Assembly: GCA_964355035.1 (NCBI GenBank)
Contig: CAYHCU010000002.1
Coordinates: forward strand, 1 to 47,580
DNA length: 47,580 bases
Direction: 5' to 3'
Origin: an uncultured Flavobacteriales bacterium
Lineage (GTDB): Bacteria; Bacteroidota; Bacteroidia; AKYH767-A; 2013-40CM-41-45
Each line of letters starts with the position of its first letter. Positions within the stretch are counted from its first letter, which is position 1. The notes beneath the pieces are model-generated. The model searched no databases. It saw only the letters and a list, made by a program, of their open reading frames with translations, and had not been told where the DNA came from. A program made the translations under genes and the position numbers. Shown here in pieces: positions 10,290 through 46,127 of this stretch.

Positions 10290-10835
10290 GTGAGATTTAA
10301 GAATAAAATATCGCGGTTTATAAAGCAAATACTAGTATGTGTTTTGCTTTTGCCATCGATTATTCGTGCCGGATCAACCTCAGACGGAAACGAGTATTCG
10401 ATTAAGGCGATGTTTTTGTTAAATTTCATGAAGTATATAGATTGGCCGGTTGGAAGTTCTTCTCAGGTATTTAAAATTGGTGTTGTTGGAGAATCAGAGA
10501 TGTACGACGCTTTGATTAATCTTGAGGCAAAACGTTCTTCGGAAGGGCAAAAAGTGGAGATTAAAAAAATAGATAGTAAGAATCTAGGTGACTTCCAGAT
10601 AGTTTTTATATCGAATAGTGAAAGGGGTAAAATTGATGAACTAATAAAACGATATTCAATGAAGGGGGTGCTTATTATTACCGAAGATGACAAAGGAAAG
10701 GTTAAGCAAGCCGGAATAAATTTATTTAATCAGGAAGATAAAATAAGATTTGAGATTAATCTCAACTCAACAAAAGGCAACGGATTGAAAGTATCTTCTA
10801 AACTCATAGAGCTGGCAGCAGCAGTTCACAATTAA
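10290..10835 (+). CDS. YfiR/DUF4154-family periplasmic protein
   Basis: GTG start, signal peptide, and the YSIKAMFLLNFMKYIDWP block that I associate with YfiR-like proteins. The size is right at about 180 aa. Confidence 0.7.
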   Translation: MRFKNKISRFIKQILVCVLLLPSIIRAGSTSDGNEYSIKAMFLLNFMKYIDWPVGSSSQVFKIGVVGESEMYDALINLEAKRSSEGQKVEIKKIDSKNLGDFQIVFISNSERGKIDELIKRYSMKGVLIITEDDKGKVKQAGINLFNQEDKIRFEINLNSTKGNGLKVSSKLIELAAAVHN

Positions 10836-18858: not shown

Positions 18859-19059
18859 AGCTGCAAAGCTAAAGAAATTTTATTGGTGGTTCGAGGTTCG
18901 TTTTTACGAAGCAAAAGATATAATCATATTGTGAATTTATAATACCCCCTCTTTTCAATCACCACTTACCATTCACTACTTACCGTAAAAGAATATTAAA
19001 TGTAAAACAATCGTTCCTGTGAAAATCTTTTTATTTTTGCTGGCCCAATATTTTTTTGT

Positions 19060-21003
19060 TTGAGTAAACATTATGATCATAAAGTAACAGGAGCCATGCT
19101 TCTTGTTACGCTTGGAATTATCTACGGGGACATTGGTACATCGCCACTCTACGTAATGAAAGCCATTGTAGGTAAACAACCAATCAATTCTGAAGTTGTC
19201 TTAGGTGGAATATCATGTATTTTTTGGACGCTTACCATTCAAACGACCTTCAAGTATGTCATGCTTACTTTAAGAGCAGATAACAAAGGAGAAGGAGGAA
19301 TCTTTTCACTCTATGCATTAATACGCCGAACGAAATTAAAGTGGTTGATATGGCCGGCAATTATTGGAGGGTCAGCTTTGTTAGCCGATGGAATAATTAC
19401 TCCGCCAATTTCTGTTTCCTCCGCCATTGAGGGATTGCGAATTTTCAATCCTGAAATCCCTACCGTACCAATAGTAATTGCAATTCTTACAGCATTATTT
19501 TTCATTCAGCAATTCGGAACAAAATTTGTCGGGCAATTTTTCGGTCCAATCATGTTGGTTTGGTTTTCCACAATAGCTGTATTGGGTGTTTCCAATATGC
19601 TTGTGAATCCATCTGTTTTAAAAGCGCTGAATCCGTATTACGCAATCCATCTGATCACACAATATCCCGGAGGGTTTTGGTTATTGGGAGCCGTTTTTCT
19701 GTGTACAACAGGAGCAGAAGCATTATATAGCGACTTGGGGCATTGCGGTAGAAGAAACATTCGGATTACCTGGGTGTTTGTAAAAATTTCTTTGGTTTTG
19801 AATTATCTTGGGCAAGCAGCATGGTTACTTGAACATGAAGGATCATTACTAAAGGATAAAAATCCGTTTTTCGAAATGATGCCGGCATGGTTTCTTATTC
19901 CGGGAATCGTCATTGCAACAGTAGCGGCAATTGTTGCCAGTCAGGCGTTGATCAGCGGTTCGTTTACTTTGATCAACGAAGCCATCCGGTTAAATTTCTG
20001 GCCGAAGGTAAGAGTGGTATATCCGACAGATATGCGTGGACAGCTTTATGTTCCTTCGGTAAATTGGGTTTTGCTCTTAGGTTGTATTGGCATTACATTG
20101 TTCTTCAAAGAATCGAGCGGGATGGAGGCAGCCTATGGTTTAGCGATTATCATTACGATGTTAAGTACAACAACGCTTCTTGCTTATTATCTTTATCTAC
20201 GTCGCGTTTCATTCATCTTTATCATCTTCGTTCTTGTTCTGTTCTTAACAGTTGAATTAACTTTTCTTATTGCCAATCTCGATAAATTCCCACATGGTGG
20301 TTGGTTAACAATATTAATTGCAAGTGCTTTGGTTTTCCAAATGTGGGGATGGTATGCAGCAAGAAAAATCCGCAATCGATTTGTGGAGTTTGTAAAGGCA
20401 AAAGACTATCTCAATTTGCTAAGAGATTTAAGTCACGATTTTTCTATTCCGAAATATGCAACCCATCTTGTTTATCTGACGAGTGCAAATATGTCTGACG
20501 AAATTGAAGCCAAAGTTATGTATTCTATTTTGCAGAAACAGCCGAAACGAGCCGACATGTACTGGTTTGTTCACGTGGATGTAATGGATGAGCCATACAC
20601 CATGGATTATAAAGTGATAGAATTAATTAAAGGGAATATTATCCGAATAGATTTCCGTTTAGGCTTCCGTGTCGAGCCAAGAATTAATCTGATGTTTAGA
20701 AAAGTAGTAGAAGACATGGTTAAAAATTTCGAAGTGGACATTACTTCACGTTATGAATCATTGGGAAGAAAAAATCTGATTGGAGATTTTCGTTTTGTTG
20801 TGATGGAAAAATTCCTGAGTTATGAAAACGAATTTCCATTCTACGAAAAGATCATTCTCGACTTTTACTTCTTCTTTAAAAAAGTTTCTCTTTCAGAGGA
20901 ACGCGCTTTCGGTTTAGATACAAGTAGTGTGACTATTGAAAAGGTACCATTAATTGTAAATCCGATTGGAGAAATTAATCTTAAACGAATCAAGCAACCT
21001 TAA
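19060..21003 (+). CDS. kup: Kup/HAK/KT potassium uptake transporter
   Basis: N-terminal signature LGIIYGDIGTSPLYV, a polytopic core and a cytosolic C-terminal domain. TTG start. Confidence 0.92.
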   Translation: MSKHYDHKVTGAMLLVTLGIIYGDIGTSPLYVMKAIVGKQPINSEVVLGGISCIFWTLTIQTTFKYVMLTLRADNKGEGGIFSLYALIRRTKLKWLIWPAIIGGSALLADGIITPPISVSSAIEGLRIFNPEIPTVPIVIAILTALFFIQQFGTKFVGQFFGPIMLVWFSTIAVLGVSNMLVNPSVLKALNPYYAIHLITQYPGGFWLLGAVFLCTTGAEALYSDLGHCGRRNIRITWVFVKISLVLNYLGQAAWLLEHEGSLLKDKNPFFEMMPAWFLIPGIVIATVAAIVASQALISGSFTLINEAIRLNFWPKVRVVYPTDMRGQLYVPSVNWVLLLGCIGITLFFKESSGMEAAYGLAIIITMLSTTTLLAYYLYLRRVSFIFIIFVLVLFLTVELTFLIANLDKFPHGGWLTILIASALVFQMWGWYAARKIRNRFVEFVKAKDYLNLLRDLSHDFSIPKYATHLVYLTSANMSDEIEAKVMYSILQKQPKRADMYWFVHVDVMDEPYTMDYKVIELIKGNIIRIDFRLGFRVEPRINLMFRKVVEDMVKNFEVDITSRYESLGRKNLIGDFRFVVMEKFLSYENEFPFYEKIILDFYFFFKKVSLSEERAFGLDTSSVTIEKVPLIVNPIGEINLKRIKQP

Positions 21004-21044
21004 AAATTCACTTTTCAGTTACCCATTTTTTTTAACAAAATAAC

Positions 21045-21560
21045 ATGTCTACAATCACTAAAAGTCCGCAAGACTCACTTACGATAAACACAGAGTTCGT
21101 GTTACCGAATGATACTAATACGCTTGGCAATTTGATGGGTGGGCGACTTTTGCATTGGATGGATATTGCAGCAGCGATTTCAGCTCACCGCCATTGTGGA
21201 AGAATTGTAGTAACAGCAAGTGTAAATAATGTAAGTTTTAATCAGCCGATAAAGTTGGGAGAGATTGTAACTCTTCATGCAAAAGTTTCACGTGCCTTTA
21301 CTTCATCAATGGAAGTATTTATTGATGTTTGGGTAGAGAACAATGCTTCAGGTCAGAAAAAAAAGTGCAATGAAGCGATTTATACTTTTGTAGCAGTAGA
21401 CCAGCTTGGCAATCCGATTAATGTACCGGTATTGGTTCCCGAAACCGATGAAGAGAAGCAACGTTATGAAAGTGCATTGCGTCGTCGACAGCTTTCGTTA
21501 ATACTTGCGGGTAAAATGAAACCCGAAGATGCGACGGAGTTGAAGAAGCTGTTTTTGTGA
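21045..21560 (+). CDS. Acyl-CoA thioesterase (hotdog fold)
   Basis: LPNDTNTLGNLMGGRLLHWMDIAAAI block typical of acyl-CoA hydrolases, in a 171-aa protein. Confidence 0.8.
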   Translation: MSTITKSPQDSLTINTEFVLPNDTNTLGNLMGGRLLHWMDIAAAISAHRHCGRIVVTASVNNVSFNQPIKLGEIVTLHAKVSRAFTSSMEVFIDVWVENNASGQKKKCNEAIYTFVAVDQLGNPINVPVLVPETDEEKQRYESALRRRQLSLILAGKMKPEDATELKKLFL

Positions 21561-21942
21561 TTTTTCGGAATGCGGATTTCAGAATTGGAGGTTGGGGAGG
21601 ACTTAATTTAAAGGTGACGCTATATATTAAATAATGTAAGGCAGGACTAAAGTAAAATTGTGATAAACAATCAGTCGTACAAAGAGACCTACAAGTTCCT
21701 TAAAGGATGACGGATAGATGGTTTGAGAGGGGATGGGGGAACGTAAACCACTACAAGAAGCTTGCAGCATTTTCATCTTTCAATTAAAGTGTAGTCATTA
21801 ATAATATAGTTTCAACGAAAACATTTTGCAAATGCAGACAGCAATTTTCTGAAAGAATCTTGTAGGTTTTTTCTACTCAACCCTCCCTAAAAAGTAACGC
21901 AATTGTCATTCCGGAAGAACCTTGTAGGTTTCTAAGTACGAC
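21561..21942 (+). repeat. Intergenic element copy A: a periodic cggaWtt block abutting the stop codon, followed by a conserved core shared with 26687-26972. Possibly a structured RNA or a MITE.
   Basis: TTTTTCGGAATGCGGATTTCAGAATT starts 1 nt after the TGA stop. Three core boxes have close counterparts in copy B: AGTTCCTTAAAGGATGAC (21694-21711), GGGGGAACGTAAAC and CTACAAGAAGCTTGCAGCATT. A long-range inverted repeat joins 21674-21698 to 21917-21942. Confidence 0.6.
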
Positions 21943-22053
21943 AGCTAATAGATTTCAAATTTTTCTACTGTCAACTAATAGTCGAGAGAATTTCTACCCT
22001 GCCCAGAAGCCATCTTTAAATGAATGCGCCCTATTTTTTCACAGTTATCATAT

Positions 22054-22098
22054 AAAAAAAACAACGGCCTGACACTGCCAGGCCGTTGTGAGACGTTT
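22054..22098 (-). terminator. Rho-independent terminator for the T9SS cargo gene ending at 22120
   Basis: An 11-bp GC-rich stem (ACAACGGCCTG 22061-22071 pairs with CAGGCCGTTGT 22079-22089) with a 7-nt loop. An A8 run on the + strand gives a U-run after the hairpin on the - strand. Confidence 0.7.
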
Positions 22099-22119
22099 TT
22101 ATTTTGTACTTAGATTAAA

Positions 22120-23880
22120 TTATCTTGAAATAAAAACTCTTGATGAACTAGTTTTTTCACCATTTAGAATAGTAAGGAAATAAGCTCCTTTAGATATTGT
22201 TGAAACATCCATTGTATTAATTCCGCTTTGTAATGTTTGTGTTAATACTACTCGGCCGGTTACATCAACTAAAGAAGAGCTTCCGTTTTCAGAAGATTTG
22301 TTAATCAGAAAAGAAAGTTGAGTAGAAGCCGGGTTAGGATAAGCTGCAATAGCAAGACCTTTTTCAGCATCGTTGATACCAGAAGCAATGTAGACGAAAT
22401 CAGGGGAAACGCTGAAGCAACCGGAAGCAAAATAAACTACAACAGCATACGTACCGTCAGCAGTTGGAGTGTAAGTAGGTGCATTTGATCCCGGAATATA
22501 ACTTCCATTAAAATACCATTCATAAGAATTACCAATAATCGTTTCTAATACAAGTCCGTTTAATGTAATTGTTGCAGGAGTTCCTACTCCAACCGTAACT
22601 AGAACGGATGCGCTGGTAGCAGAACAACCATTCGCATCAGTAACCAGAACAGTATAAGGAGTTGTTACACTTGCAGTACAAGCGGGGTTTGCTAATGTTG
22701 CATCATTTAATCCTGTTGAAGGACTCCACAAGTATGAATAACCAGAAGTTCCACCGGAAGCAGTTGGTGTTCCTCCCAGATTAACAGCTCCTCCTCCGCA
22801 AATTGATTGAGCAGGACCGGAAGAAGCAACTAAAGCAGTAGGTTCGTTAACGGTGATAGACGCCGTAGCAATACAGCCCGTGTTATCAGTAGTTGTTACA
22901 ATATAGATTCCTGCAGTTAGATTAGAAGCGGCTGCCGCAGAGCCTCCTGAAGGGGACCATGAATAGTTGAATGGGTTGGCGCCACCGGATGGCGTTGCTA
23001 AAGCAGAACCATTATTACCTCCATTACAAGTAACACTTGTAGCGCTAGTGATTATTGAGTAAGTGCTTCCGCTAACCGACAATGTTGCAGCAGGACTGGC
23101 ACCACAAGCATTATTTGCTGTAACTGTAACATTTCCTGAAGCGATGCTAGAAGTTACATTGATTGAATTTGTTGTTGAAGTACCTGACCATCCTGAAGGA
23201 AGCGTCCATGTGTAAGTAGTTGCGCCGGCAACAGCGGCAACAGAGTAAGTTGTAGTTCCTCCGCTACACAGAGCAGTAGCACCTGCAATTGCTCCCGGTT
23301 GAACCGGAGTGATACAGCTTATTTCAGTAAGCAATTGAGAACCGGAATAGCAATAATCTCCGCCTTCGTTACCGTTTCCATTACAAGCGGCACCACAGAA
23401 ATAAAATGTAACATTTCCTGTACCTGCTGCAGGAGCGGTCCAACTGAAGTTAAAAACTTTCGAAGCTGAAGTTGCACCTCCGTCTAGAGTATGTACAATA
23501 TTTCTTCGTGACACACCACCTGCAGTTGCACTTTTAATTTGTGTTGACGCGGCATCAGTGATGTTAAGCGTACCTGCATTTTGATTTGCAGATGTTAAAG
23601 CCTCAATACCCACTCCAAAAAGTGTACTTGCTGAACGAGAAATTGTAACGCTCATAGCATAGGTTTGTCCTGGAGTATATTGAAAACCGGACATTGTTGG
23701 AGCCTGAATCGTTGCCGATCCGCCACCGCTGTTCAAAGCAAAGTCGCCATGGCAATCTGTGCAGAAAACCTCACTTGGCGATCCTGTTTTTGCTGCTTTT
23801 CCGTTGTCGCTCATTTGCTCGCTCGTGAAAACGGCGAATAAAATTATCGGAAGCGTTGATAGTAGTAGTTTCTTAATCAT
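22120..23880 (-). CDS. T9SS type A cargo protein with SprB-type and Ig-like repeats
   Basis: A signal peptide follows internal ATG 23880 (MIKKLLLSTLPIILFAVF). SprB-like repeat CNGGNNGSA...GGANPFNYSWSP. C-terminal sorting domain AAYPNPASTQLSF...GAYFLTI. The ORF-track start at 23979 is probably too long. Confidence 0.8.
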   Translation of the reverse strand: MIKKLLLSTLPIILFAVFTSEQMSDNGKAAKTGSPSEVFCTDCHGDFALNSGGGSATIQAPTMSGFQYTPGQTYAMSVTISRSASTLFGVGIEALTSANQNAGTLNITDAASTQIKSATAGGVSRRNIVHTLDGGATSASKVFNFSWTAPAAGTGNVTFYFCGAACNGNGNEGGDYCYSGSQLLTEISCITPVQPGAIAGATALCSGGTTTYSVAAVAGATTYTWTLPSGWSGTSTTNSINVTSSIASGNVTVTANNACGASPAATLSVSGSTYSIITSATSVTCNGGNNGSALATPSGGANPFNYSWSPSGGSAAAASNLTAGIYIVTTTDNTGCIATASITVNEPTALVASSGPAQSICGGGAVNLGGTPTASGGTSGYSYLWSPSTGLNDATLANPACTASVTTPYTVLVTDANGCSATSASVLVTVGVGTPATITLNGLVLETIIGNSYEWYFNGSYIPGSNAPTYTPTADGTYAVVVYFASGCFSVSPDFVYIASGINDAEKGLAIAAYPNPASTQLSFLINKSSENGSSSLVDVTGRVVLTQTLQSGINTMDVSTISKGAYFLTILNGEKTSSSRVFISR

Positions 23881-24182
23881 GTTATTATTTGTTTGTGTAT
23901 TGAATTTTAAATTGTTTAAGGGCTTAAATTTGTATGACTGATTTCCTAAATCCCTTTGTTTTCGGCACTTTTGGAGCATTTGTGCAAAAAAAGAAATAAA
24001 TCCTGTATCTAAAATGATAATCTTTAAATAGTAGCAATCTATTTCCTAAACTCATTTTCAATACAAAATCCGAAACGAAAACTTGGGAGGCAAAGGTTCG
24101 AGAGAAATTTCCTAAACAGGAATGATGATGGTCACAAAAGGGTAATTTCTGCGTTATATCAGTCGAGATTCGACCTTTTCGC

Positions 24183-24190
24183 TATATTTG
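24183..24190 (+). promoter_or_regulatory. Candidate -7 promoter box (TATATTTG)
   Basis: Exact TAnnTTTG match 16 nt upstream of ATG 24207. Confidence 0.4.
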
Positions 24191-24206
24191 TACAAACGAC
24201 AGTTCT

Positions 24207-26588
24207 ATGAAAAAAATATTTCCGCTGCTTATTCTTCTCCTGATCTCCGGGATTTCGTACTCTCAACAAGCAAAGTACCAAAAAGTGAAAATTTGGTTTG
24301 ACGGCAAAAATACTTCACAGTTAGCTAAGCTGGGTGTGGATCTTTTAGAAGGAGAATACAAAAAAGGGGTTTGGTTTATTTCCGATTTCAGCGGAAAAGA
24401 GGTGGAGTCAATACAGCAAGCAGGCTTTCGGGTCGAGGTGTTAATTCCTGACGTACAGAAATTTTATCGCGAGCGGGCACAACAGTTAAACTCTTCTCCG
24501 GAACGAATTAATTCGGTTGCTTGTGGTGCAACAACCTTAAGTTATGCAACGCCATCGCATTTTTACCTTGGAGGAATGGGAGGTTATTTTACCTACACTC
24601 AAATGTTGAACATTTTAGATTCAATGGCATTGCTGTATCCTTCATTAGTAACAATTAAGCAACAGATAGATCCAACAACATCTATAGAAGGCCGACCCAT
24701 CTATTATGTAAAAATTTCTGACAATGCAACAATCGATGAGCAGGAGCCGGAAGTACTGTATACTGCTGTTCATCATGCACGGGAACCGGAATCGTTGTCG
24801 CAATTAATTTATTACATGTGGTATTTATTGGAGAATTATTCAACAGATACTACTGTGCAGTCATTGGTAAATAATACCGAAATGTTTTTTGTTCCTTGTT
24901 TGAATCCTGATGGGTATATTTATAATCATACAACAGATCCCAATGGTGGTGGAATGTGGCGCAAGAACAGACGGGACAATTTAGACGGGCAATTTGGTGT
25001 TGATTTGAACAGGAACTATGATTATTTCTGGGGCTTTGATGACGTTGGATCGGCACCTAATACCGATGGTGAAACATACCGCGGCACTGCACCATTTTCT
25101 GAACCTGAAACACAAGCACTGAAAAACTTTGTGGAGGGACACAATTTTAAGGATGCGCTTAATTATCATACCTACGGGAATCATTTAGTGCAACCATGGG
25201 GATATATCGCTAATATATATCCGGTTGATTCAGCGCAATATTATCTCTACGGCAATTCAGTTGCAGCAGAAAATCATTATCATGTAGGTACACCCAATCA
25301 AACAGTAAACTATATTGTAAATGGTAGTTCAGACGACTGGATGTATGGAGAGCAATCATCAAAACCGAAAATTTTTGCATGGACACCTGAAGTTGGTTCG
25401 GGCTCTGATGGTTTTTGGCCGGCGCCGAATAGAATCATTCCGCTTGCAAATGAAAACATTTATGCCAATGAAATGCTAGCGAAAATAGCAATGAAATATG
25501 CGAAAGTAACTCACCATGAAAATTTAAACATTGGTCAGTTAAGCAATGAGTTTGTGTATGACTTTTCAGTATTAGGCTTCGACACAAGTGGAAGTTTTAC
25601 GGTACAGATTGCTCCGATATCATCAAACATACTTAGCGTTGGTACAGCAAATGTTTATTCAGGATTAACATCACTTCAAGTGATTAACGATTCAATTTCT
25701 TTTAGTCTGAGTCCAGCGATTGAGAATGGCGACTTAGTTGTTTATGTAGTTGAATGCGACAATGGATATTTTATTGAGCGAGATACAATAACACAAACGG
25801 TCGGTATTCCACAACCTATGATTGTAGATGACTGTTCGAATATCGGCTTATGGAGTTCCTTTACAGCTTGGTATACAACAACAGAAGCTTATGTTTCTGC
25901 ATCAACATCAATTACAGATTCTCCGTTTAATAATTATCAGAGTAACGACTTTAATGAATTGTATTTGGCAAACAACATAGATTTGACCGGTGTTATTAAT
26001 GCAACATTATCTTTTGATGCAAAATGGGAAACAGAAAAGGGATTTGATTATGTTCAGTTAGCGGCTTCATCTGACAATGGAAGCACGTGGACGAATTTAT
26101 GCGGAAGATATACGCAACCATCTACAGAGGTTGGTATTTTTGGAGAGCCGTCGTACGAAGGAAATCAACCAACGTGGGTAAGAGAGACGATAAGCTTAAA
26201 CGATTACATTGGGCAAAATATTAAATTACGTTTCAGACTAGTGAGTGACGGTTTTGTTGAATATGATGGATTTTATTTTGACGACATCACGATAGAAACC
26301 TTGAGTTCAAGTGTAGGGCTTTCATCTACACAAGCAAGCATCTTTATTTCACAAGCCTATCCGAATCCTGCAACAGAAAAGGCAACGGTAAATTATGGTC
26401 TTGCAAATAAAGGAGATCGTTTTGTTGTTTACAATACGTTTGGCCAGTTAGTCTTTGAAAAAGAAATAATTACTGCAAGCGGCACAATTGAAATTCCAAC
26501 ATCGCAAATGAGTAGCGGAATGTACACGTATTGCATACAGCAGGCTACGGGAAGCAGAAGTAAAGCGTTGCGGATATTAGTGAGATAA
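24207..26588 (+). CDS. M14-family zinc carboxypeptidase with T9SS type A sorting domain
   Basis: Signal peptide. M14 zinc ligand block HHAREPES (HxxE). Extra beta-rich C-terminal domains. Sorting domain AYPNPATEKATV...GMYTYCI. Confidence 0.87.
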   Translation: MKKIFPLLILLLISGISYSQQAKYQKVKIWFDGKNTSQLAKLGVDLLEGEYKKGVWFISDFSGKEVESIQQAGFRVEVLIPDVQKFYRERAQQLNSSPERINSVACGATTLSYATPSHFYLGGMGGYFTYTQMLNILDSMALLYPSLVTIKQQIDPTTSIEGRPIYYVKISDNATIDEQEPEVLYTAVHHAREPESLSQLIYYMWYLLENYSTDTTVQSLVNNTEMFFVPCLNPDGYIYNHTTDPNGGGMWRKNRRDNLDGQFGVDLNRNYDYFWGFDDVGSAPNTDGETYRGTAPFSEPETQALKNFVEGHNFKDALNYHTYGNHLVQPWGYIANIYPVDSAQYYLYGNSVAAENHYHVGTPNQTVNYIVNGSSDDWMYGEQSSKPKIFAWTPEVGSGSDGFWPAPNRIIPLANENIYANEMLAKIAMKYAKVTHHENLNIGQLSNEFVYDFSVLGFDTSGSFTVQIAPISSNILSVGTANVYSGLTSLQVINDSISFSLSPAIENGDLVVYVVECDNGYFIERDTITQTVGIPQPMIVDDCSNIGLWSSFTAWYTTTEAYVSASTSITDSPFNNYQSNDFNELYLANNIDLTGVINATLSFDAKWETEKGFDYVQLAASSDNGSTWTNLCGRYTQPSTEVGIFGEPSYEGNQPTWVRETISLNDYIGQNIKLRFRLVSDGFVEYDGFYFDDITIETLSSSVGLSSTQASIFISQAYPNPATEKATVNYGLANKGDRFVVYNTFGQLVFEKEIITASGTIEIPTSQMSSGMYTYCIQQATGSRSKALRILVR

Positions 26589-26590
26589 AG

Positions 26591-27054
26591 AATTTCGGAT
26601 TTCGGAATGCGGATTTCGGATTGGGCGGGTTACTAAGCAGTAATTGTTTCCAATGAAGCAGTCACTTTAATGGGTCACAATTAAAAGTTGGAGAGAGATT
26701 TAATTTACGAGAGCGGTCAAATATTTTTTATTCGGTTTATTCGGTATTAAAGGTGAATCCAAATTGGTTTCAGCGAACTGCCGTTTTTAGAAAACGACGA
26801 GTTCCTTACAGGATGACACAGTGATCGCATTATTGGGAGGAGGAGTAACGTAAGGCGACGAGATGCCTACTGCATTAGCTATGAACGTAAAATCGCCTTT
26901 TCCCTTTGATGCAAGTGAATAAATGTGTAGTAAATTCCTTAGGAATCTCGTAGCCTTACCTTTCTGTCCCCCTTTAATCCAAAATTAAATTACTAAGCAG
27001 AGATTGTTTCCAATAAAAGTAGCTCCTCTAATCCGAAATCCGGAATCCGCAATT
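26591..27054 (+). repeat. Intergenic element copy B: terminal inverted repeats, nested direct repeats and the conserved core. It fills the whole spacer between convergent genes.
   Basis: The left end AATTTCGGATTTCGGAATGCGGATTTCGGATT (26591-26622) is inverted at the right end as AATCCGAAATCCGGAATCCGCAATT (27030-27054). The direct repeat TTACTAAGCAG-N-ATTGTTTCCAAT occurs at 26630 and 26990. The core runs about 26687-26972. Confidence 0.65.
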
Positions 27055-27055
27055 C

Positions 27056-28024
27056 TTAATAAGCAATCTCCTCATCACTCAACTCATTCATACATTTAAA
27101 GTGACCTTTCGGGCATTTATCAAAACCGATTTTAGAGCAAGGGCGGCAGGAGAGGTTTTTCACTTCGAGCATTTTATTGTTTTCGGAAAATGATTTTGGG
27201 AAATATGGGTACATTCCGAATTCAGGAATAGTATTTCCCCAGACAGAAATTATTTTTTTTCTGAAAGCAGCAGCGATGTGCATTAAACCGGTGTCGTGAG
27301 TGATGACGTGATGTGAATGTTTTACGATGGCAGCAGATTGATTGAGTGAAAAATTTCCGCAGCCATCATAAACCGGGACATTGAAATAAGATAGTAATTC
27401 TTTGCTCCTTTCGGAATCTTCTTTTCCTCCAAGAAGCACAACCGGCAATTTAAACTTTCCCGAAATGGAAATCATTTTACTTAGCGGCAATTGTTTGGTG
27501 GCGTGTTTAGCACCGATTACCCAGGCAATATAATTTTGTTGAAAAGCGGAGGGAAGTTGACCAATAATTTTTTCGTCTTCGGAAGTGATAAAATAATCTA
27601 ATCCTTCACCGTCATTTTTTACACCGAAGGAAGATACAGTATCAAGGTAACGATCGACAATATGTTTATCCGGAAGCGATTTCGTTTTAAAATTAACAGT
27701 GAGCCATTTTTCAAGATTCAGTTTATTGAAGGAATGTGATGGAGCATTTATAGAGCGTTTTACTTTCCATGAACGGAAGTTATGGTGCAAATCGATAATG
27801 GCATCGTACTTTTCAATCTTTAAGAATTCAAGAACCTCAGATGCATTTTTTTCAAAAAGAAACGTTTTGTCGAGATAGGGATTATTTTTTGTTACGGAGC
27901 TAAAACTTTTTTTGGTGAGAAAATGAACCTCTGCATTCGGGACTTGGTTTTTCAGGCAGCGGATCACCGGTGATGTAAGAACGATATCACCGATAGAAGA
28001 GAAACGAAGCAAGAGAAATTTCAT
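27056..28024 (-). CDS. Glycosyltransferase family 9 (heptosyltransferase-like)
   Basis: N-terminal RFSSIGDIVLTSPVIRCLK and C-terminal HDTGLMHIAAA patterns typical of GT9. Confidence 0.85.
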   Translation of the reverse strand: MKFLLLRFSSIGDIVLTSPVIRCLKNQVPNAEVHFLTKKSFSSVTKNNPYLDKTFLFEKNASEVLEFLKIEKYDAIIDLHHNFRSWKVKRSINAPSHSFNKLNLEKWLTVNFKTKSLPDKHIVDRYLDTVSSFGVKNDGEGLDYFITSEDEKIIGQLPSAFQQNYIAWVIGAKHATKQLPLSKMISISGKFKLPVVLLGGKEDSERSKELLSYFNVPVYDGCGNFSLNQSAAIVKHSHHVITHDTGLMHIAAAFRKKIISVWGNTIPEFGMYPYFPKSFSENNKMLEVKNLSCRPCSKIGFDKCPKGHFKCMNELSDEEIAY

Positions 28025-28113
28025 CTGAAAGCAGGCTAATTAATTGTTACTTTTGAGCGCCACCGGCGCACAACTAATTCTGCAAAGATAACCTTACAGC
28101 GACAATAAAAAAG

Positions 28114-28881
28114 ATGATAATTACAGATACACATACACACCTTTATGCTGAAGAATTCGATGCTGACAGAGATTATTTGATAGAGCAGGCCGGAATTCTA
28201 GGGGTACAACGATTTTTCCTTCCTAATATTGACAGCTCTTCGATTGAGCCAATGTTGGAACTGGAAAAGCGCTATCCCGGGAAAGTCTTTGCAATGATGG
28301 GATTACATCCATGTCATGTGAAAGAGAATTGGAAAGCAGAATTAGCAATAGTTGAGAAATGGCTCAACGAAAGAAGCTTTGTTGCTGTTGGAGAGATTGG
28401 TATCGATCTGTATTGGGACAAAACATTTTTGGAAATACAAAAAGAAGCGTTTCAAATTCAAGTGAGAATGGCAAATGAACGAAAGTTGCCGATTATAATT
28501 CACACCCGCGATTCGTTTGATGTGACTTATGAGTTATTGAAAGAAACAAAGAAAGAAGAACCACAAGGAATTTTCCATTGCTTTTCCGGAACAGCAGAGC
28601 AAGCTCAAAAAGCAGTTGACCTGGGATTTATGTTAGGCATTGGCGGCGTAGTGACATTTAAAAACAGCGGCGTTGATAAAGCGATTGAAAAAATTCCATT
28701 AGAGCATATCGTATTAGAGACAGACTCACCTTATCTTGCGCCTGTTCCATACAGAGGGAAAAGAAACGATCCTGCATATATTTTGAAAGTTGCAGAGAAG
28801 CTTTCGGAGATTTATGGATGCTCTTTACAGGAAGTTGCCAATGTTACGACAGCGAATTCGAAGAGGGTGTTTGGGATTTGA
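28114..28881 (+). CDS. TatD-family metal-dependent hydrolase
   Basis: DTHTHL start motif and a collinear TatD layout (GEIGIDLYW, IIHTRDS, LETDSPYL). Confidence 0.9.
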   Translation: MIITDTHTHLYAEEFDADRDYLIEQAGILGVQRFFLPNIDSSSIEPMLELEKRYPGKVFAMMGLHPCHVKENWKAELAIVEKWLNERSFVAVGEIGIDLYWDKTFLEIQKEAFQIQVRMANERKLPIIIHTRDSFDVTYELLKETKKEEPQGIFHCFSGTAEQAQKAVDLGFMLGIGGVVTFKNSGVDKAIEKIPLEHIVLETDSPYLAPVPYRGKRNDPAYILKVAEKLSEIYGCSLQEVANVTTANSKRVFGI

Positions 28882-28971
28882 TTTTAATTCAAAAGGTAAA
28901 ATTCAAAAGTCAAAAAAACAAGCCATCAGTTAATTCACTAAGAGAGGTTTCATTTTGAACCTTTAAGGCTC

Positions 28972-28979
28972 TAATTTTG
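28972..28979 (+). promoter_or_regulatory. Candidate -7 promoter box (TAATTTTG)
   Basis: Exact TAnnTTTG match 17 nt upstream of ATG 28997. Confidence 0.4.
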
Positions 28980-28996
28980 AAATTTAAATAAAGAAA

Positions 28997-30019
28997 ATGA
29001 AAAAGAAAGTATTGATCATTTACACCGGCGGAACGATAGGGATGATTCGTGATCATAAGACGCGAGCGTTGACACCTTTTAATTTCCGTACGATTACCGA
29101 TCAGATTCCTGAATTGAAGCATCTGAATTGTCATATTGCTTTTTACGCATCACATAAAGCCATAGATTCCTCGGATGTGCAACCGAATTTTTGGGAAGAG
29201 TTGGCAACGATTATTGAAAAGAAATATCATCAGTACGATGGTTTTGTGATACTGCACGGAACAGATACTATGGCATATACAGCTTCCGCATTGAGTTATA
29301 TGCTGGAGAATTTGTCGAAACCTGTAATTCTAACCGGCTCGCAATTACCGTTAGGAGTGATTCGAACTGATGCAAAAAGAAATTTGATCACAGCGATAGA
29401 AATTGCGGCATCGAAAAAAGTTGTTCCGGAAGTGTGTGTTTATTTTAACAGTCAGTTATTCAGAGGAAACAGAACGGAGAAATTTACATCGAGCAAGTTT
29501 GATGCTTTTCATTCCTTGAATTTTCCTGTGCTTGCAGAAGCCGGAGTAGAAATGGTTTTTGATGAACGTGTAATTCTTCCAAAGCCAAAGAAGAAATTGA
29601 AAGTGAATCGCGGGTTTAACGATCATGTGTTGGTACTAAAATTATTCCCCGGACTTTCTCCTATAGTAATAGATGCATTGGCAGAAATAAAAAATTTGCG
29701 CGGAATAGTTTTGGAAACATTTGGCAGCGGCAATGCTCCATCAACAAAAAAGTTCTTAGCAAGCATCGAACGTTTAATTAAAAGCGGAATTGTTGTTTTG
29801 AATATTTCACAATGCAGTGGCGGTACGGTGAATCAGAGCAAGTATGAAACCGGTATCGGTTTGAAAAATATCGGTGTGATATCCGGTGGTGATATGACGA
29901 CAGAGGCAGCGATTACGAAGATGATGTTTTTGTTGAATAGATATACAAAGCAGAAAGATGTTAAGAAATATTTGATGATGAATTTAGCAGGGGAAAAAAA
30001 TCCTTTGCACGGCCCTTAA
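28997..30019 (+). CDS. ansA: Type I L-asparaginase
   Basis: Active-site blocks IIYTGGTIGM and HGTDTMAYTA, in a 340-aa protein. Confidence 0.9.
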   Translation: MKKKVLIIYTGGTIGMIRDHKTRALTPFNFRTITDQIPELKHLNCHIAFYASHKAIDSSDVQPNFWEELATIIEKKYHQYDGFVILHGTDTMAYTASALSYMLENLSKPVILTGSQLPLGVIRTDAKRNLITAIEIAASKKVVPEVCVYFNSQLFRGNRTEKFTSSKFDAFHSLNFPVLAEAGVEMVFDERVILPKPKKKLKVNRGFNDHVLVLKLFPGLSPIVIDALAEIKNLRGIVLETFGSGNAPSTKKFLASIERLIKSGIVVLNISQCSGGTVNQSKYETGIGLKNIGVISGGDMTTEAAITKMMFLLNRYTKQKDVKKYLMMNLAGEKNPLHGP

Positions 30020-30034
30020 GGGCCGCGCAAAGGA
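30001..30034. repeat. REP-type palindrome (copy 1), overlapping the ansA stop codon
   Basis: TCCTTTGCACGGCCCTTAAGGGCCGCGCAAAGGA is palindromic with one mismatch. The ansA TAA (30017-30019) lies in the central TTAA. Confidence 0.7.
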
Positions 30035-30173
30035 TTTTTATTATATGCAGTATAATTAAATAGTGAAGTTGTTTCAATTTGTTTTTCAGATTCAATTATA
30101 AAATATGTTTGCAGCAGAATGATTCATTATGATCATTCATAAATAATCGCAAACAAATTTTAACTAGAGTCGT

Positions 30174-30605
30174 ATGCCATATGTAAGAATTTGGGTTCAC
30201 GCCGTGTTCTCAACAAAAAATAGAAATCCCTTTTTAAAACAAAATATCCGGAAGAAAGTTTGGGATCATATCCGGTTGAATTGCAAAGAAAAAAATATTT
30301 ACCTGCAGAATATAAATGGATCAACAGATCATGCACATTGTTTGTTTCAACTAGGAAGAACACAGACATTGTCAGAGGTTATGAATCTTATTAAAGGGGA
30401 ATCATCGCAATGGATCAACAAAAATAAGTTAACGGAAGAACATTTTAGCTGGCAGACAGAATATTGGGCTGCGTCAATAAGTGATTCGGATATTAAGAGA
30501 GTGGAAGCTTATATCAATAATCAGGAAAAGCATCATGCAGATAAAGACTTTGAAGTAGAGTTGCGGGAATTGATAAGGGAGTTTGGATTTGAAAAATGCA
30601 TATAA
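30174..30605 (+). CDS. IS200/IS605-family Y1 (HUH) transposase, REP-associated (RAYT-like)
   Basis: HUH motif (STDHAHCLF) and catalytic Tyr region (WQTEYWAAS) in a 143-aa protein. It is flanked on both sides by the same palindrome family. An upstream hairpin reads GAATGAT-N8-ATCATTC. Confidence 0.85.
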   Translation: MPYVRIWVHAVFSTKNRNPFLKQNIRKKVWDHIRLNCKEKNIYLQNINGSTDHAHCLFQLGRTQTLSEVMNLIKGESSQWINKNKLTEEHFSWQTEYWAASISDSDIKRVEAYINNQEKHHADKDFEVELRELIREFGFEKCI

Positions 30606-30610
30606 AATAT

Positions 30611-30662
30611 TTTCATTTATTTTTTGCACGGCCCTTAAGGGCCGTGCAAAAAATAAATGAAA
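30611..30662. repeat. REP-type palindrome (copy 2): a perfect 52-nt palindrome that probably also acts as a bidirectional terminator
   Basis: TTTCATTTATTTTTTGCACGGCCCTTAAGGGCCGTGCAAAAAATAAATGAAA. I checked every position for complementarity around the centre at 30636/30637. It sits between the convergent RAYT and dusB stop codons. Confidence 0.85.
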
Positions 30663-30671
30663 ATATTTTAT

Positions 30672-31668: not shown

Positions 31669-31817
31669 GTTCAAAGTTCAAGGTTCAAAGTTCGAAGTTG
31701 GGCTTCGAAAACAACCAATTGATATTTTATTTGTTTCTTATTATTTCAAAAATTAAATTTTATATAACCACTTTTAATTTATACAATCATTATTTGAACT
31801 TTGAACTTTGAACTTTG
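31669..31817. repeat. Inverted arrays of a 9-mer (GTTCAAAGT) bracketing the dusB/CPBP divergent promoter region
   Basis: GTTCAAAGTTCAAGGTTCAAAGTTCGAAGTT (31669-31699) faces its reverse complement TTTGAACTTTGAACTTTGAACTTTG (31793-31817). A 93-bp AT-rich segment separates them. A further GAACTTTGAAC lies at 31830-31840. Confidence 0.6.
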
Positions 31818-31894
31818 TCCCGATGGGATGAACTTTGAACCCAGTCCTTCAAAGGAAAGCGCTACCTTTGCGGCGACAAAAATAGGTCAAAGCA

Positions 31895-32848: not shown

Positions 32849-33061
32849 TTTCGGATTTCGGAATGCGGATTTCGGATTGGGCTGTTCACTAGAGGGTGAT
32901 TGCTTCCACTGAAAGAGGTAGAAGAATTTCGGATTGGGGTGCTTGCTAAAAGGCGATTGCTACCAATAAAGGAATATTACGAATTTCGAATTTCGGAATG
33001 GGCGGGTTACTAATAGGTAATTGCTTCCAATAAACGCAGGCCCTTGATCCGAAATCCAATT
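32847..33061 (+). repeat. Intergenic element copy C: a periodic cggaWtt block, three tandem 57-63-bp units and a terminal inverted repeat
   Basis: AATTTCGGATTTCGGAATGCGGATTTCGGATT overlaps the TAA stop. Units starting at 32879, 32936 and 33000 each contain GGG..TTAC-TAnnnn-GTAA-TTGCTTCCAAT. The right end GATCCGAAATCCAATT (33046-33061) is an inverted copy of the left motif. Confidence 0.65.
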
Positions 33062-33150: not shown

Positions 33151-33237
33151 GGAGAGATGTCCGAGTGGCTGAAGGAGCACGCTTGGAAAGCGTGTGTATC
33201 TGAAAAGGTACCGTGGGTTCGAATCCCACTCTCTCCG
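33151..33237 (+). tRNA. tRNA-Ser (anticodon GGA)
   Basis: Acceptor stem GGAGAGA/TCTCTCC. Anticodon stem CACGC/GCGTG with loop TTGGAAA. Long variable arm. T-arm GTGGG-TTCGAAT-CCCAC. Discriminator G. No encoded CCA. Confidence 0.95.
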
Positions 33238-33551
33238 CAAATTTTTCGAGGATCGTGATTCGTCATTCATGAATCATATCGATTTAATATGTTTTAAAAT
33301 TTCTATAGTACTATAAATTCCCGCTGCACTCAGTAGGATACTTTTGAGAGACATTGTCGTTATGATGGGGTTGAATGATGCTTGAATATGAAAGTGTTTA
33401 AACTGCGTGGAAAATTCCGTTTAACATTTCGTCCGTCGTATATATAAAGCAGGCACTATATATATTTTGCCTGGTCACTGAGGACCTGGCAAAATTGTTT
33501 GAGTAGGTCAGAAAAACAGAATTCCGTACTATTGCCGCCAAATCAAGAATA

Positions 33552-34305: not shown

Positions 34306-34335
34306 CTTTGCTCGACCCTTAAAGGCCGAGCAAAG
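34306..34335. repeat. Degenerate REP-type palindrome (copy 3)
   Basis: CTTTGCTCGACCCTTAAAGGCCGAGCAAAG compared with the canonical CTTTGCACGGCCCTTAAGGGCCGTGCAAAG. The A>T change in the left arm is matched by T>A in the right arm. Confidence 0.5.
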
Positions 34336-39521: not shown

Positions 39522-40508
39522 ATGGAGAATATTGACCAAAACAATACCGCAATAATTCCTGTTGGTTCAACGGACTTAGTTAGGGTTGGTAATACGCTTT
39601 CAATTACAAATAAAATATTAATTGGAGACATTGAGAAGGATTTTAACCTAGCCTTTTATTTATTGAATAACAGAGATCTACTATTAAATACTGACGACTA
39701 TTGCTTTAAGTTGGAAAATGATTCCCAATACAGGAAGTCAAACAAATTTAAATACATTTCTTCCAACGTCGATAATTATTCTAAGGCAATTACATTATTT
39801 AATTCAATACTTCAAACTAAACCCTATCATTGCCTTTCTTATGAAATGAGGGCAGTCGCTAAAATTAAATTAAAGAATTATTTAGGAGCAATCGAGGATT
39901 ATTCTAAGGCAATTGAAATTAATTCAAAATACGCTTTTGCTTTTAATGGTAGAGGAAACGCTAAGTTGCAATTAAAGGATTACTTAGGGGCAATCGAGGA
40001 TTATGACAAGGCAATTGAAATTGATTCAAAATACGCTTTTGCTTTTAATGGTAGAGGAAACGCTAAGTTGCAATTAAAGGATTACTTAGGGGCAATCGAG
40101 GATTATGACAAGGCAATTGAAATTGATTCAAATATTGCAACGGTGTTTAATAATCGAGGGAAGAGCAAGTATAATTTAAAAGATTACGCAGGGGCAATCG
40201 AGGATTATGACAAGGCAATTGAAATTTATCCAAATTTTGCCAATGCATTTTATTGTCGAGGCGTCGCCAAGGTTTACGTAAAGAATTACACTGGAGCAAT
40301 AGATGATTTTTCTAAGGTAATTGAAATTAGTCCTAAAAACGCCTTTGCATTTAATGCTCGAGGCATGACCAATGAACAACTAAAAAATTATGTTGGAGCA
40401 ATTGAGGATTATTCCAAGGCAATTGCAATTGATCCAAATTACATCACTGCGCGTAATTTTCGAGAAAATGCATTAAAGAAATTGGCGGATTTGACTGGCC
40501 ATGAATAA
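39522..40508 (+). CDS. TPR-repeat protein (about 7 TPRs) with a distinctive N-terminal module
   Basis: Seven 34-aa units of the form Y.GAIEDY.KAIEI.P....AF..RG.AK. N-terminal MENIDQNNTAIIPVGSTDLVRVGNTLSITNKIL is shared with the protein starting at 41954. Confidence 0.85.
   Translation: MENIDQNNTAIIPVGSTDLVRVGNTLSITNKILIGDIEKDFNLAFYLLNNRDLLLNTDDYCFKLENDSQYRKSNKFKYISSNVDNYSKAITLFNSILQTKPYHCLSYEMRAVAKIKLKNYLGAIEDYSKAIEINSKYAFAFNGRGNAKLQLKDYLGAIEDYDKAIEIDSKYAFAFNGRGNAKLQLKDYLGAIEDYDKAIEIDSNIATVFNNRGKSKYNLKDYAGAIEDYDKAIEIYPNFANAFYCRGVAKVYVKNYTGAIDDFSKVIEISPKNAFAFNARGMTNEQLKNYVGAIEDYSKAIAIDPNYITARNFRENALKKLADLTGHE
39888..40229 (+). repeat. 102-bp (one TPR unit) tandem repeats with a perfect 109-nt duplicated stretch
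   Basis: GCAATCGAGGATT recurs at 39888, 39990, 40092 and 40194. Nucleotides 39922-40030 are identical to 40024-40132. Confidence 0.9.
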
Positions 40509-46087: not shown

Positions 46088-46127
46088 AAAAACTTTGCAC
46101 GGCCCTTAAGGGCCGTGCAAAGTTTTT
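46088..46127. repeat. REP-type palindrome (copy 4) between convergent genes
   Basis: AAAAACTTTGCACGGCCCTTAAGGGCCGTGCAAAGTTTTT is a perfect 40-nt palindrome. Its core is identical to the core of the 30611-30662 copy. Confidence 0.85.

Follow-up and report, generated by a model that had tools for sequence, protein, structure and literature searches.

Among the repetitive extragenic palindromic sequences (REPs) of bacteria, superfamilies tagged by GTAG and by CGTC have been described; REPs lie mostly downstream of genes, between convergent open reading frames (ORFs), often as head-to-head dimers, and repeats of the CGTC type, which have no linked transposase, are found in Bacteroidetes (Di Nocera et al. 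2013, PMC3733652). Inverted REP doublets (REPINs) form hairpins in single-stranded DNA or mRNA, and compensatory changes across the hairpin are common (Bertels and Rainey 2011, PMC3116915). Here, we compare with these systems two intergenic elements, A and B, found in a 47,580-nt stretch of DNA (the window) from an uncultured Flavobacteriales bacterium (assembly GCA_964355035.1, contig CAYHCU010000002.1, positions 1 to 47,580). The original prediction, made from the letters alone, had regarded A and B as a conserved core present twice, with compensatory changes, and possibly as a structured RNA. Our analysis indicates that they are probably two subfamilies of one palindromic DNA repeat, high-copy and non-autonomous, of freshwater Bacteroidota, of the REP, bacterial interspersed mosaic element (BIME), REPIN or MITE (miniature inverted-repeat transposable element) kind. 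No description of the family was found in the searchable literature, whereas the kind of element is well known.

The ordered boxes that had been reported as common to A and B were all recovered. Box 1 (AGTTCCTTAMAGGATGAC) lies at 21694-21711 in A and 26800-26817 in B; it is followed by a purine run and AACGTAA (21725-21746 and 26835-26853), by a box that reads CTACAAGAAGCTTGCAGCATT in A (21751-21771) and CGACGAGATGCCTACTGCATT in B (26856-26876), and by a later box, GAATCTTGTAG in A (21855-21865) and GAATCTCGTAG in B (26943-26953), after each of which comes a C-rich run. The two matches of box 1 in the window compare with 0.02 expected from shuffles, and no third match appeared even when three mismatches were allowed. 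With A as the query, nhmmer matched B at E 1.6e-5, and both copies matched their own reverse complements (E 4.5e-13 for A and 4.6e-6 for B). The observed similarity, including the compensatory changes considered below, is real and well beyond chance. Searches with the Rfam 15 covariance models agreed with the earlier statement that the core could not be matched to a familiar noncoding RNA (ncRNA) family: only a tRNA reached the threshold in the window, and nothing meaningful fell over either core at the gathering threshold or at a permissive one (E up to 10).

The first question is how many copies exist. Assembled contigs (not reads) of four lake metagenomes were aligned to the A and B regions, in which the high-copy parts extend over approximately 21651-21948 and 26772-26976, respectively. 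Depth was ~10 over the flanking genes, 50-620 over core A and 170-1050 over core B, corresponding to 5-60 times (A) and 17-100 times (B) the depth of the unique flanks, and the distinct contigs, with identities of 85-99%, numbered 57-80 on A and 171 on B (90-99% for the latter). Contigs unique to this genome stop within the cores, at 21663-21691 and 21919 in A and at 26616 and 26948 in B. The right end of A is sharp: at 21945-21948, other A-type copies enter unrelated flanks, and some of them then run into the same simple repeat (cggatttcgg) that is found at B. B-type copies elsewhere go on past 26974-26977 with AAAAGTGCGC..GTGTCATCCTGTAAGG, where GTGTCATCCTGTAAGG is the reverse complement of box 1; likewise, ORF P0001, a predicted protein across another B copy and the sole protein recovered by database search with a 65-aa open frame across B, translates the inverted CGACGAGTTCCTTACAGGATGAC. 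Since other B-type copies continue to an inverted box 1, copy B of the window lacks its right-hand end; whole elements, whether of the A or the B type, are bounded by inverted box 1 arms. The elements thus occur in tens of copies, with discrete ends in unrelated flanks, and the claim of a core present only twice was wrong: metagenome depth, contig numbers and assembly breaks all mark a high-copy family. The search for further copies that had been proposed found many in the metagenomes and two among genome contigs (L110 and L109, described below). Within ~64 kb of contig, A and B are the two copies, the additional 8.4 kb on each side holding no further one; contig density and depth ratios suggest 50-100 copies per genome, an order of magnitude that is approximate because community depth was used and B-type copies are also found in further organisms of these lakes (X26).

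The anatomy of the two copies is that of a composite palindrome, the parts of which are as follows (the basis of each assignment is given in brackets).

21580-21620, + strand: non-palindromic 5' module (AATTGGAGGTTGGGGAGGACTTAATTTAAAGGTGA), common to A and B (alignment)
21651-21948, unstranded: copy A, a long imperfect palindrome, inverted dimer of a two-hairpin unit (depth, contig breaks, self reverse-complement match, fold)
21674-21711, + strand: left arm of A: GTCGTAC... (outer stem), CTACAAG (tag; 21689-21695) and the box 1 mini-hairpin TCCT-TAA-AGGA + TGAC (21697-21711) (sequence, arm alignment)
21725-21746, + strand: purine run and AACGTAA of A, pairing with the C-rich run 21876-21888 (sequence, fold)
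21751-21771, + strand: second unit of A, CTACAAG and mini-hairpin 2 (AAGCT-TGC-AGCAT; elsewhere mostly ATGCT-TGC-AGCAT) (sequence, variant depth)
21847-21869, + strand: inner right unit of A, a direct copy of a right-arm segment: TTCT-GAA-AGAA and then TCTTGTAGG (direct repeat D6, 21847-21869 / 21909-21931; arm alignment)
21905-21942, - strand: right arm of A, inverted with respect to its partner 21674-21711: box 1-like GTCATTCCGGAAGAAC, CTTGTAG and ...GTACGAC (outer stem) (top depth of the element, 370-620)
26675-26715, + strand: 5' module upstream of B (alignment; depth 322 at 26679-26709)
26772-26976, unstranded: copy B, truncated on the right, without the right-hand inverted box 1 (depth, contigs, P0001)
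26795-26817, + strand: first unit of B, CGACGAG and the box 1 mini-hairpin TCCT-TAC-AGGA + TGAC (sequence, box 1 count)
26856-26876, + strand: second unit of B, CGACGAG and mini-hairpin 2, ATGC-CTACT-GCAT (ATGCA-TAC-TGCAT in 40% of copies) (sequence, variant)
26934-26953, + strand: third, inverted unit of B, ATTCC-TTA-GGAAT and CTCGTAG, pairing with 26852-26864 (sequence, fold)

The building block is a mini-hairpin of 4-5 bp that follows a 7-nt tag, CTACAAG in A and CGACGAG in B; in the A type, tag plus mini-hairpin read CCTACAAGTTCCTTACAGGATGAC. The complements of the tags contain GTAG (CTTGTAG in A) and CGTC or CGTA (CTCGTCG and CTCGTAG in B). A is an inverted dimer of one unit, as seen when its left arm is aligned with the reverse complement of its right arm: 29 of the 38 positions of 21674-21711 and 21905-21942 are identical. 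Each arm is ordered as outer stem, CTACAAG, mini-hairpin with TGAC, G-rich spacer, AAACC, CTACAAG and second mini-hairpin. The mini-hairpins of A are TCCT-TAA-AGGA (21697-21707), AAGCT-TGC-AGCAT (21758-21770), TTCT-GAA-AGAA (21847-21857) and TTCCGGAA (21909-21916). In B, the tag CGACGAG precedes both box 1 (26795) and the second hairpin (26856), and CTCGTAG stands in the inverted third unit (26947). Most other copies have better mini-hairpins than those of the window. At 21759, 327 of 339 depth units show the change A>T, by which ATGCT-TGC-AGCAT is restored; in 40% of the B copies, ATGCA-TAC-TGCAT results from 26867 C>A. Complementarity spans the whole element, beyond the ends. Two inverted units and a spacer form a long hairpin in A, and the full B-type copies end in the inverted box 1. 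No direct repeat was seen beside the arms of A, the left boundary of which is ill-defined because family homology continues upstream; it runs from the 5' module to the left arm, and homology to the left of 21653 is still evident in L110 and in the loose ends of further copies.

Folding confirmed the short pairings that had been proposed, namely CTACAAGA (21751-21758) with TCTTGTAG (21858-21865) in A and ACGAGAT (26858-26864) with ATCTCGT (26945-26951) in B, together with the outer helix of A (21674-21695 with 21921-21942). The A/B consensus fold is one common long hairpin of 38 pairs, each of which is formed in both copies. Two-sided changes occur at 12 of the 38 consensus pairs, whereas sliding the partners by 1-3 columns leaves 0-1, a comparison that is generous because the consensus structure was derived from A and B themselves. 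Fold z-scores are -5.2 on the + strand and -4.1 on the - strand for A, and -2.9 and -1.65, respectively, for B; the two strands differ little in how well they fold. Mismatches that would be of the G.T type number 18 on the + strand and 12 on the - strand, with no significant strand bias. The A-to-G change of one arm that is matched by a T-to-C change in the other, on which the RNA proposal had leaned, is a real two-sided change; the same difference is nevertheless also seen in tags that do not pair with each other (CTACAAG at 21689 and 21751, CGACGAG at 26795 and 26856). It reads as a subfamily signature borne by every unit, and its compensatory appearance can be ascribed to the inverted-repeat design, given that the tag variant stands in every unit.

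The position of the elements is not conserved. The window lies on a lake-metagenome contig of 110.7 kb, and a further contig (L232) is identical to 11045-31560. As had been stated, A and B each sit between convergent genes, just 3' of the one on the + strand: A follows a thioesterase gene and faces the gene of a PKD/SprB protein with a type IX secretion system (T9SS) sorting domain, while B follows the gene of an M14 peptidase that likewise carries a T9SS sorting domain and faces that of a family-9 glycosyltransferase (GT9). These neighbours are typical of Bacteroidota, and the nearest named homologues of the thioesterase come from Bacteroidia and from Bacteroidota metagenome-assembled genomes (MAGs). 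A sister strain (L233, ~97% identical overall) has both elements at the same sites in intergenic regions that are 99% identical, a value that is uninformative on selection because neighbouring gene blocks of the mosaic are equally identical. Compared with 18988-29995 of the window, 250-nt blocks of this strain range from 85.6% to 100%, and such strongly mosaic identity suggests frequent recombination within the population. In a syntenic relative (L242; thioesterase 91% identical, gene order kept over 20 kb), the intergenic regions at the A and B sites measure 107 and 137 nt, compared with 559 and 467 nt in the window, and contain only long hairpins of simple 7-8-nt repeats and neither element. 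A is also absent from L247, and nhmmer found no A- or B-like sequence over ~45 kb of these two relatives. No excision joint was seen in the assembled metagenome contigs.

Is the unit confined to this lineage? A scan for box 1 with the pattern GTTCCTTANAGGATGAC, using one genome per species, yielded at least 108 loci. Among the matches listed, 85 of 112 have C as the variable base, and 84 of 112 lie outside long ORFs; many are at contig ends. Several MAGs of Saprospiraceae, Microscillaceae, Cytophagia, Calditrichota and KSB1 hold at least 4-9 loci each. The 17-mer GTTCCTTACAGGATGAC is identical in MAGs of several phyla of the Fibrobacteres-Chlorobi-Bacteroidetes (FCB) group, its flanks being lineage-specific (L003-L102 in Saprospiraceae, L092, L071, L034, L109). 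In Saprospiraceae, it is the loop of long perfect simple-repeat hairpins (30-bp) in 24 of 105 cases among the matches listed; in other lineages, box 1 forms inverted pairs 50-170 nt apart. In L092, L071 and L034, it forms arrays in which the orientation alternates and spacers of two classes occur (~128 and 33 nt in L092), and L109 carries head-to-tail tandem units of 104 nt with box 1 and the second hairpin, without the long helix. The orientation of box 1 relative to neighbouring genes is unbiased among the matches listed (36 co-directional and 33 opposed). Of the full element types, the A-type pattern had one real match in genome contigs, an A-type copy at a contig end of a Flavobacteriales MAG (L110, E 1.5e-27), whereas box 1 combined with AACGTAA and the B-type consensus GGCGACGAGATGCNTACTGCATT had none there. 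Neither the A-type nor the B-type pattern matched viral contigs, the plasmid collection gave no match, a metagenome scan with the over-degenerate pattern ACRAGATGCNTNCNGCATT returned chance matches only, and a literature search for the motif as a string found no paper. A reading of GGAAC...CGAC on the minus strand as an extracytoplasmic function (ECF)-type promoter was rejected, as the flank is not conserved in other lineages.

Hairpins of simple repeats recur around the elements as well, and B lies inside the loop of one of them.

26592-26634, + strand: left arm of the simple-repeat (cggatttcgg) hairpin around B (inverted repeat I1, direct repeat D2; depth 1177)
27018-27060, - strand: right arm of the same hairpin (inverted repeat I1)

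The cggatttcgg repeat also follows stop codons at 21563-21591 and 32849-32882, and its depth exceeds 1000 in the metagenomes and reaches ~660 in one metatranscriptome. More generally, tandem 7-8-nt repeats of the cggatttcgg, gttcaaag and cactaag types form long hairpins that fill the intergenic space right after stop codons (21563-21591, 26592-26634/27018-27060, 32849-33060 and 31669-31700/31793-31840 in the window; 10519-10626 and 15102-15239 in L242), and the repeat type at the same site differs among relatives. One arm (31817-31833) bears a box 1-like mini-hairpin, GTCCCGATGGGATGAAC. A further repeat module, TTACTAAGCAGnnATTGTTTCCAAT, occurs at 26630-26657, 26990-27017, 32880-33040 and possibly 21978-22005; it flanks B as a direct repeat and is interleaved three times with the simple repeat in the mosaic 32849-33060, directly downstream of which lies a tRNA-Ser(GGA) gene (33151-33238).

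How do the elements compare with described repeats? Like the REPIN-RAYT systems (REPINs with REP-associated tyrosine transposases) of Pseudomonas fluorescens and E. coli (Bertels and Rainey 2011, PMC3116915; Nunvar et al. 2010), A and B are high-copy extragenic palindromic units. They share with REPINs the inverted doublet, which is the replicative form there, the folding into a long hairpin with compensatory changes across it, the non-autonomous state and the occurrence of singlets, tandem clusters and truncated copies; this genome also has a palindrome-flanked Y1 (IS200-like) transposase gene. They differ in that an arm consists of two mini-hairpin units rather than one REP, that the element measures ~270-370 nt rather than ~70-110 nt, that a conserved non-palindromic 5' module is present, that the Y1 gene of the window is flanked by another palindrome, and that one and the same box 1 unit recurs in several phyla, in contrast to REPs, most of which are confined to a species. 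With the GTAG and CGTC superfamilies, the elements share the position downstream of genes between convergent ORFs and the predominance of head-to-head dimers. They may belong to these superfamilies: a GTAG (CTTGTAG in A) or a CGTC or CGTA (CTCGTCG and CTCGTAG in B) stands beside a small stem-loop, yet with an offset of 3-4 nt from the stem and on the side opposite to that of canonical REPs. Unlike CGTC families, which have stems of 8-9 bp and loops of 4-5 nt, A and B have stems of 4-5 bp and loops of 3 nt; moreover, they lack a CCA tail and combine both tag types in one family. The BIMEs of E. coli, the sequences of which are unrelated, resemble the present case as mosaics of short modules, with alternating REP-like units and two kinds of spacer (as in L092), and the window contains a comparable mosaic in which the simple repeat, TTACTAAGCAG..ATTGTTTCCAAT and the 5' module are interleaved. 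Finally, the enterobacterial repetitive intergenic consensus sequences or intergenic repeat units (ERIC/IRU), the Correia elements of Neisseria and the Rickettsia palindromic elements (RPEs) are likewise multi-copy imperfect palindromes of 100-300 nt in transcribed intergenic regions that can be mistaken for structured RNAs; they show no sequence relation to A and B, at which neither a TA nor another target duplication was seen, and the modularity of mini-hairpin and tag is more REP-like.

The following scheme would account for the design. Two tagged mini-hairpin units with a G-rich spacer make up an arm and two inverted arms the element, which can fold as one long hairpin, either as single-stranded DNA or as RNA. 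It may spread as single-stranded hairpin DNA that is cut and joined in trans by a Y1 HUH transposase of the IS200/RAYT type encoded elsewhere in the genome, landing preferentially in the loops of simple-repeat hairpins in convergent intergenic regions; after insertion, it would probably be read through as part of a 3' untranslated region (UTR). Complementarity and compensatory differences would then be products of the inverted-repeat design, and of the hairpin that the element needs to form, rather than of selection on a free-standing RNA gene. Both the mobility in trans and the preference for hairpin loops are inferred from architecture and by analogy.

The window itself encodes a Y1 transposase (30174-30605, + strand; 143 aa; Pfam Y1_Tnp, 3.4e-27), which scores 66 bits against the NCBIfam IS200 model, above its cut-off, and falls below the cut-off of the REP-transposase model. 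Its HUH motif is DHAH and its Y motif YINNQEKHH; these motifs resemble subclass 1.2 of Quentin et al. 2018, which is listed there without REPs. L242, the syntenic relative, lacks the gene. On both sides, it is flanked by a perfect palindrome, TTGCACGGCCCTTAAGGGCCGTGCAA, and not by box 1 units; the downstream copy is part of a 62-nt perfect palindrome (region 30000-30667). The palindrome recurs at 46097 (46089-46126), in degenerate form at 34310 (34306-34335) and in L250 (18555-18581). The gene and the TTGCACGGCCCTTAAGGGCCGTGCAA palindromes behind other genes look like a second, separate REP-RAYT-like system.

Several points weigh against a mobile repeat of the REP kind. The Y1 transposase of the window was rejected as the partner of A and B because of its own, different palindrome. 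A search of 8 kb around the 108 box 1 loci listed showed neither a Y1 homologue nor an ORF with HUH and Y motifs, and no RAYT gene flanked by box 1 units (a REPtron) was found there or in the window. Stems of just 4-5 bp set A and B apart from REPINs, for which a conserved non-palindromic 5' module is also unusual; compared with canonical REPs, the tag stands 3-4 nt off the stem and, in its GTAG or CGTC reading, on the 3' side of the hairpin. Neither an exact empty site nor a target-site duplication could be defined, as the entire intergenic region of the relative differs. The copy number carries the approximation noted above. The + strand folds slightly better than the - strand, all copies with a known upstream gene (A, B and L110) have the same orientation relative to that gene, and short B-type contigs are found in three metatranscriptomes (depth 2.9 in X25 and 4-4.7 in X30, and a 43-nt piece at depth 40.8 in X33); the latter could be read-through transcripts or DNA carry-over.

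Two of these features, the 5' module and the constant orientation behind genes, enter a possible though rather doubtful alternative, in which a conserved enzyme acting on single-strand nucleic acid, or a host factor, e.g., a new HUH-type mobiliser or an RNA-processing protein, might recognise the FCB-wide identical 17-nt mini-hairpin GTTCCTTACAGGATGAC, and the A/B composites, built from that site, would be a domesticated, transcribed 3' UTR element rather than purely selfish DNA.

Another explanation, which we consider unlikely, is that A and B belong to a structured-RNA family, either multi-copy small RNAs or cis-acting 3' UTR elements that stabilise or terminate mRNAs, with selection at the RNA level and the DNA repeat being secondary. 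The common fold with its two-sided changes, the slight advantage of the + strand in both copies, the position of A, B and L110 directly 3' of a co-directional gene and the B-type metatranscriptome contigs are what such a family would predict, and REPs of other bacteria do act on mRNA (PMC3733652). In addition, a strong bidirectional intrinsic terminator with a 13-bp stem, an A-run and a T-run adjoins the stop codon of the minus-strand PKD/T9SS gene (22061-22089); it was the only one found in the promoter and terminator scan, in which the sigma-70 consensus is uninformative for Bacteroidota. Because A lies between this terminator and the thioesterase stop codon, it is probably part of the 3' UTR of the thioesterase mRNA. 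Against these points stand the tens of copies in unrelated flanks, the orthologous sites of relatives that lack the elements, the folding of both strands with no asymmetry between G.U and A.C, the tandem units of L109 without a long helix, the unbiased orientation of box 1 and the lack of an Rfam family. RNA depth is very low (2.9-4.7), with read-through or DNA carry-over conceivable, and the same-sample metatranscriptomes X18 and X19 have nothing on the A region, nor do X27 and X28 on the B region. Position that is not conserved, folding on both strands and balanced wobble classes are not those of a free-standing ncRNA gene, which is not supported; transcription within 3' UTRs and some effect at the RNA level are possible. 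Of the proposed structured RNA, the core common to both copies, its folding into a hairpin and the changes on both sides of pairs stand; the evidence favours a dispersed palindromic DNA repeat over a dedicated RNA gene. The original prediction had itself named a core internal to a known insertion sequence (IS) or MITE as the outcome that would speak against an RNA; in kind, this is what was found, although the family is not a described one.

The elements would also be quite unlikely to represent classical MITEs, i.e., internally deleted derivatives of an IS with terminal inverted repeats of ~38 bp that are moved by a DDE transposase binding the double-stranded ends. The 38-nt terminal repeats of A with their 29 identical positions, the size of ~270-370 bp, the high-copy, intergenic and assembly-breaking occurrence, and the inverted CGACGAGTTCCTTACAGGATGAC that ends the full B-type copies all fit such an origin. 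No target-site duplication is seen beside A, with its ill-defined left boundary, however, and complementarity runs throughout the element rather than being limited to its ends; the unit is also met as a single copy in the loop of a hairpin, as part of an alternating array or in tandem, as REP and BIME units are. Among the 108 box 1 loci listed, no transposase gene is bounded by the repeats, and the far-apart box 1 pairs enclose ordinary host genes (the 8-kb pair of L100, the L029 pair with a glycosyltransferase, and L083). A parent IS with the same ends was found neither in the window nor among these loci nor in the plasmid collection.

That A and B are a chance resemblance of two AT-rich intergenic regions can be dismissed with near certainty, since nothing favours it beyond their low overall identity (67% of the aligned columns), and it is refuted by the box 1 count, the nhmmer match between the copies and the metagenome contigs matching each core, which run to hundreds.

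Elsewhere in the window, the + strand genes between 36872 and 46015 encode an HTH_3-Fic pair, a PLD-like protein, a Fib_succ_major protein, a protein with an ADP-ribosyltransferase exotoxin domain and several ORFs without a Pfam match, with an internal repeat at an offset of ~100 nt (39868-40430) within the ORF 39522-40508; this region may be a variable toxin or defence island.

Recognition of the elements as a probable palindromic repeat removes a false lead, in that the apparent covariation comes from the repeat and not from a new riboswitch-like RNA. For genome scans, the case implies that 'compensatory' helices seen in two copies need a check of copy number and of inverted-repeat structure before an RNA is proposed. 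For the organisms themselves, it points to an undescribed REP/BIME-like system in uncultivated freshwater Bacteroidota, which breaks short-read assemblies and inflates intergenic regions, and it flags a 17-nt hairpin motif, common to FCB-group phyla, for its binding partner.

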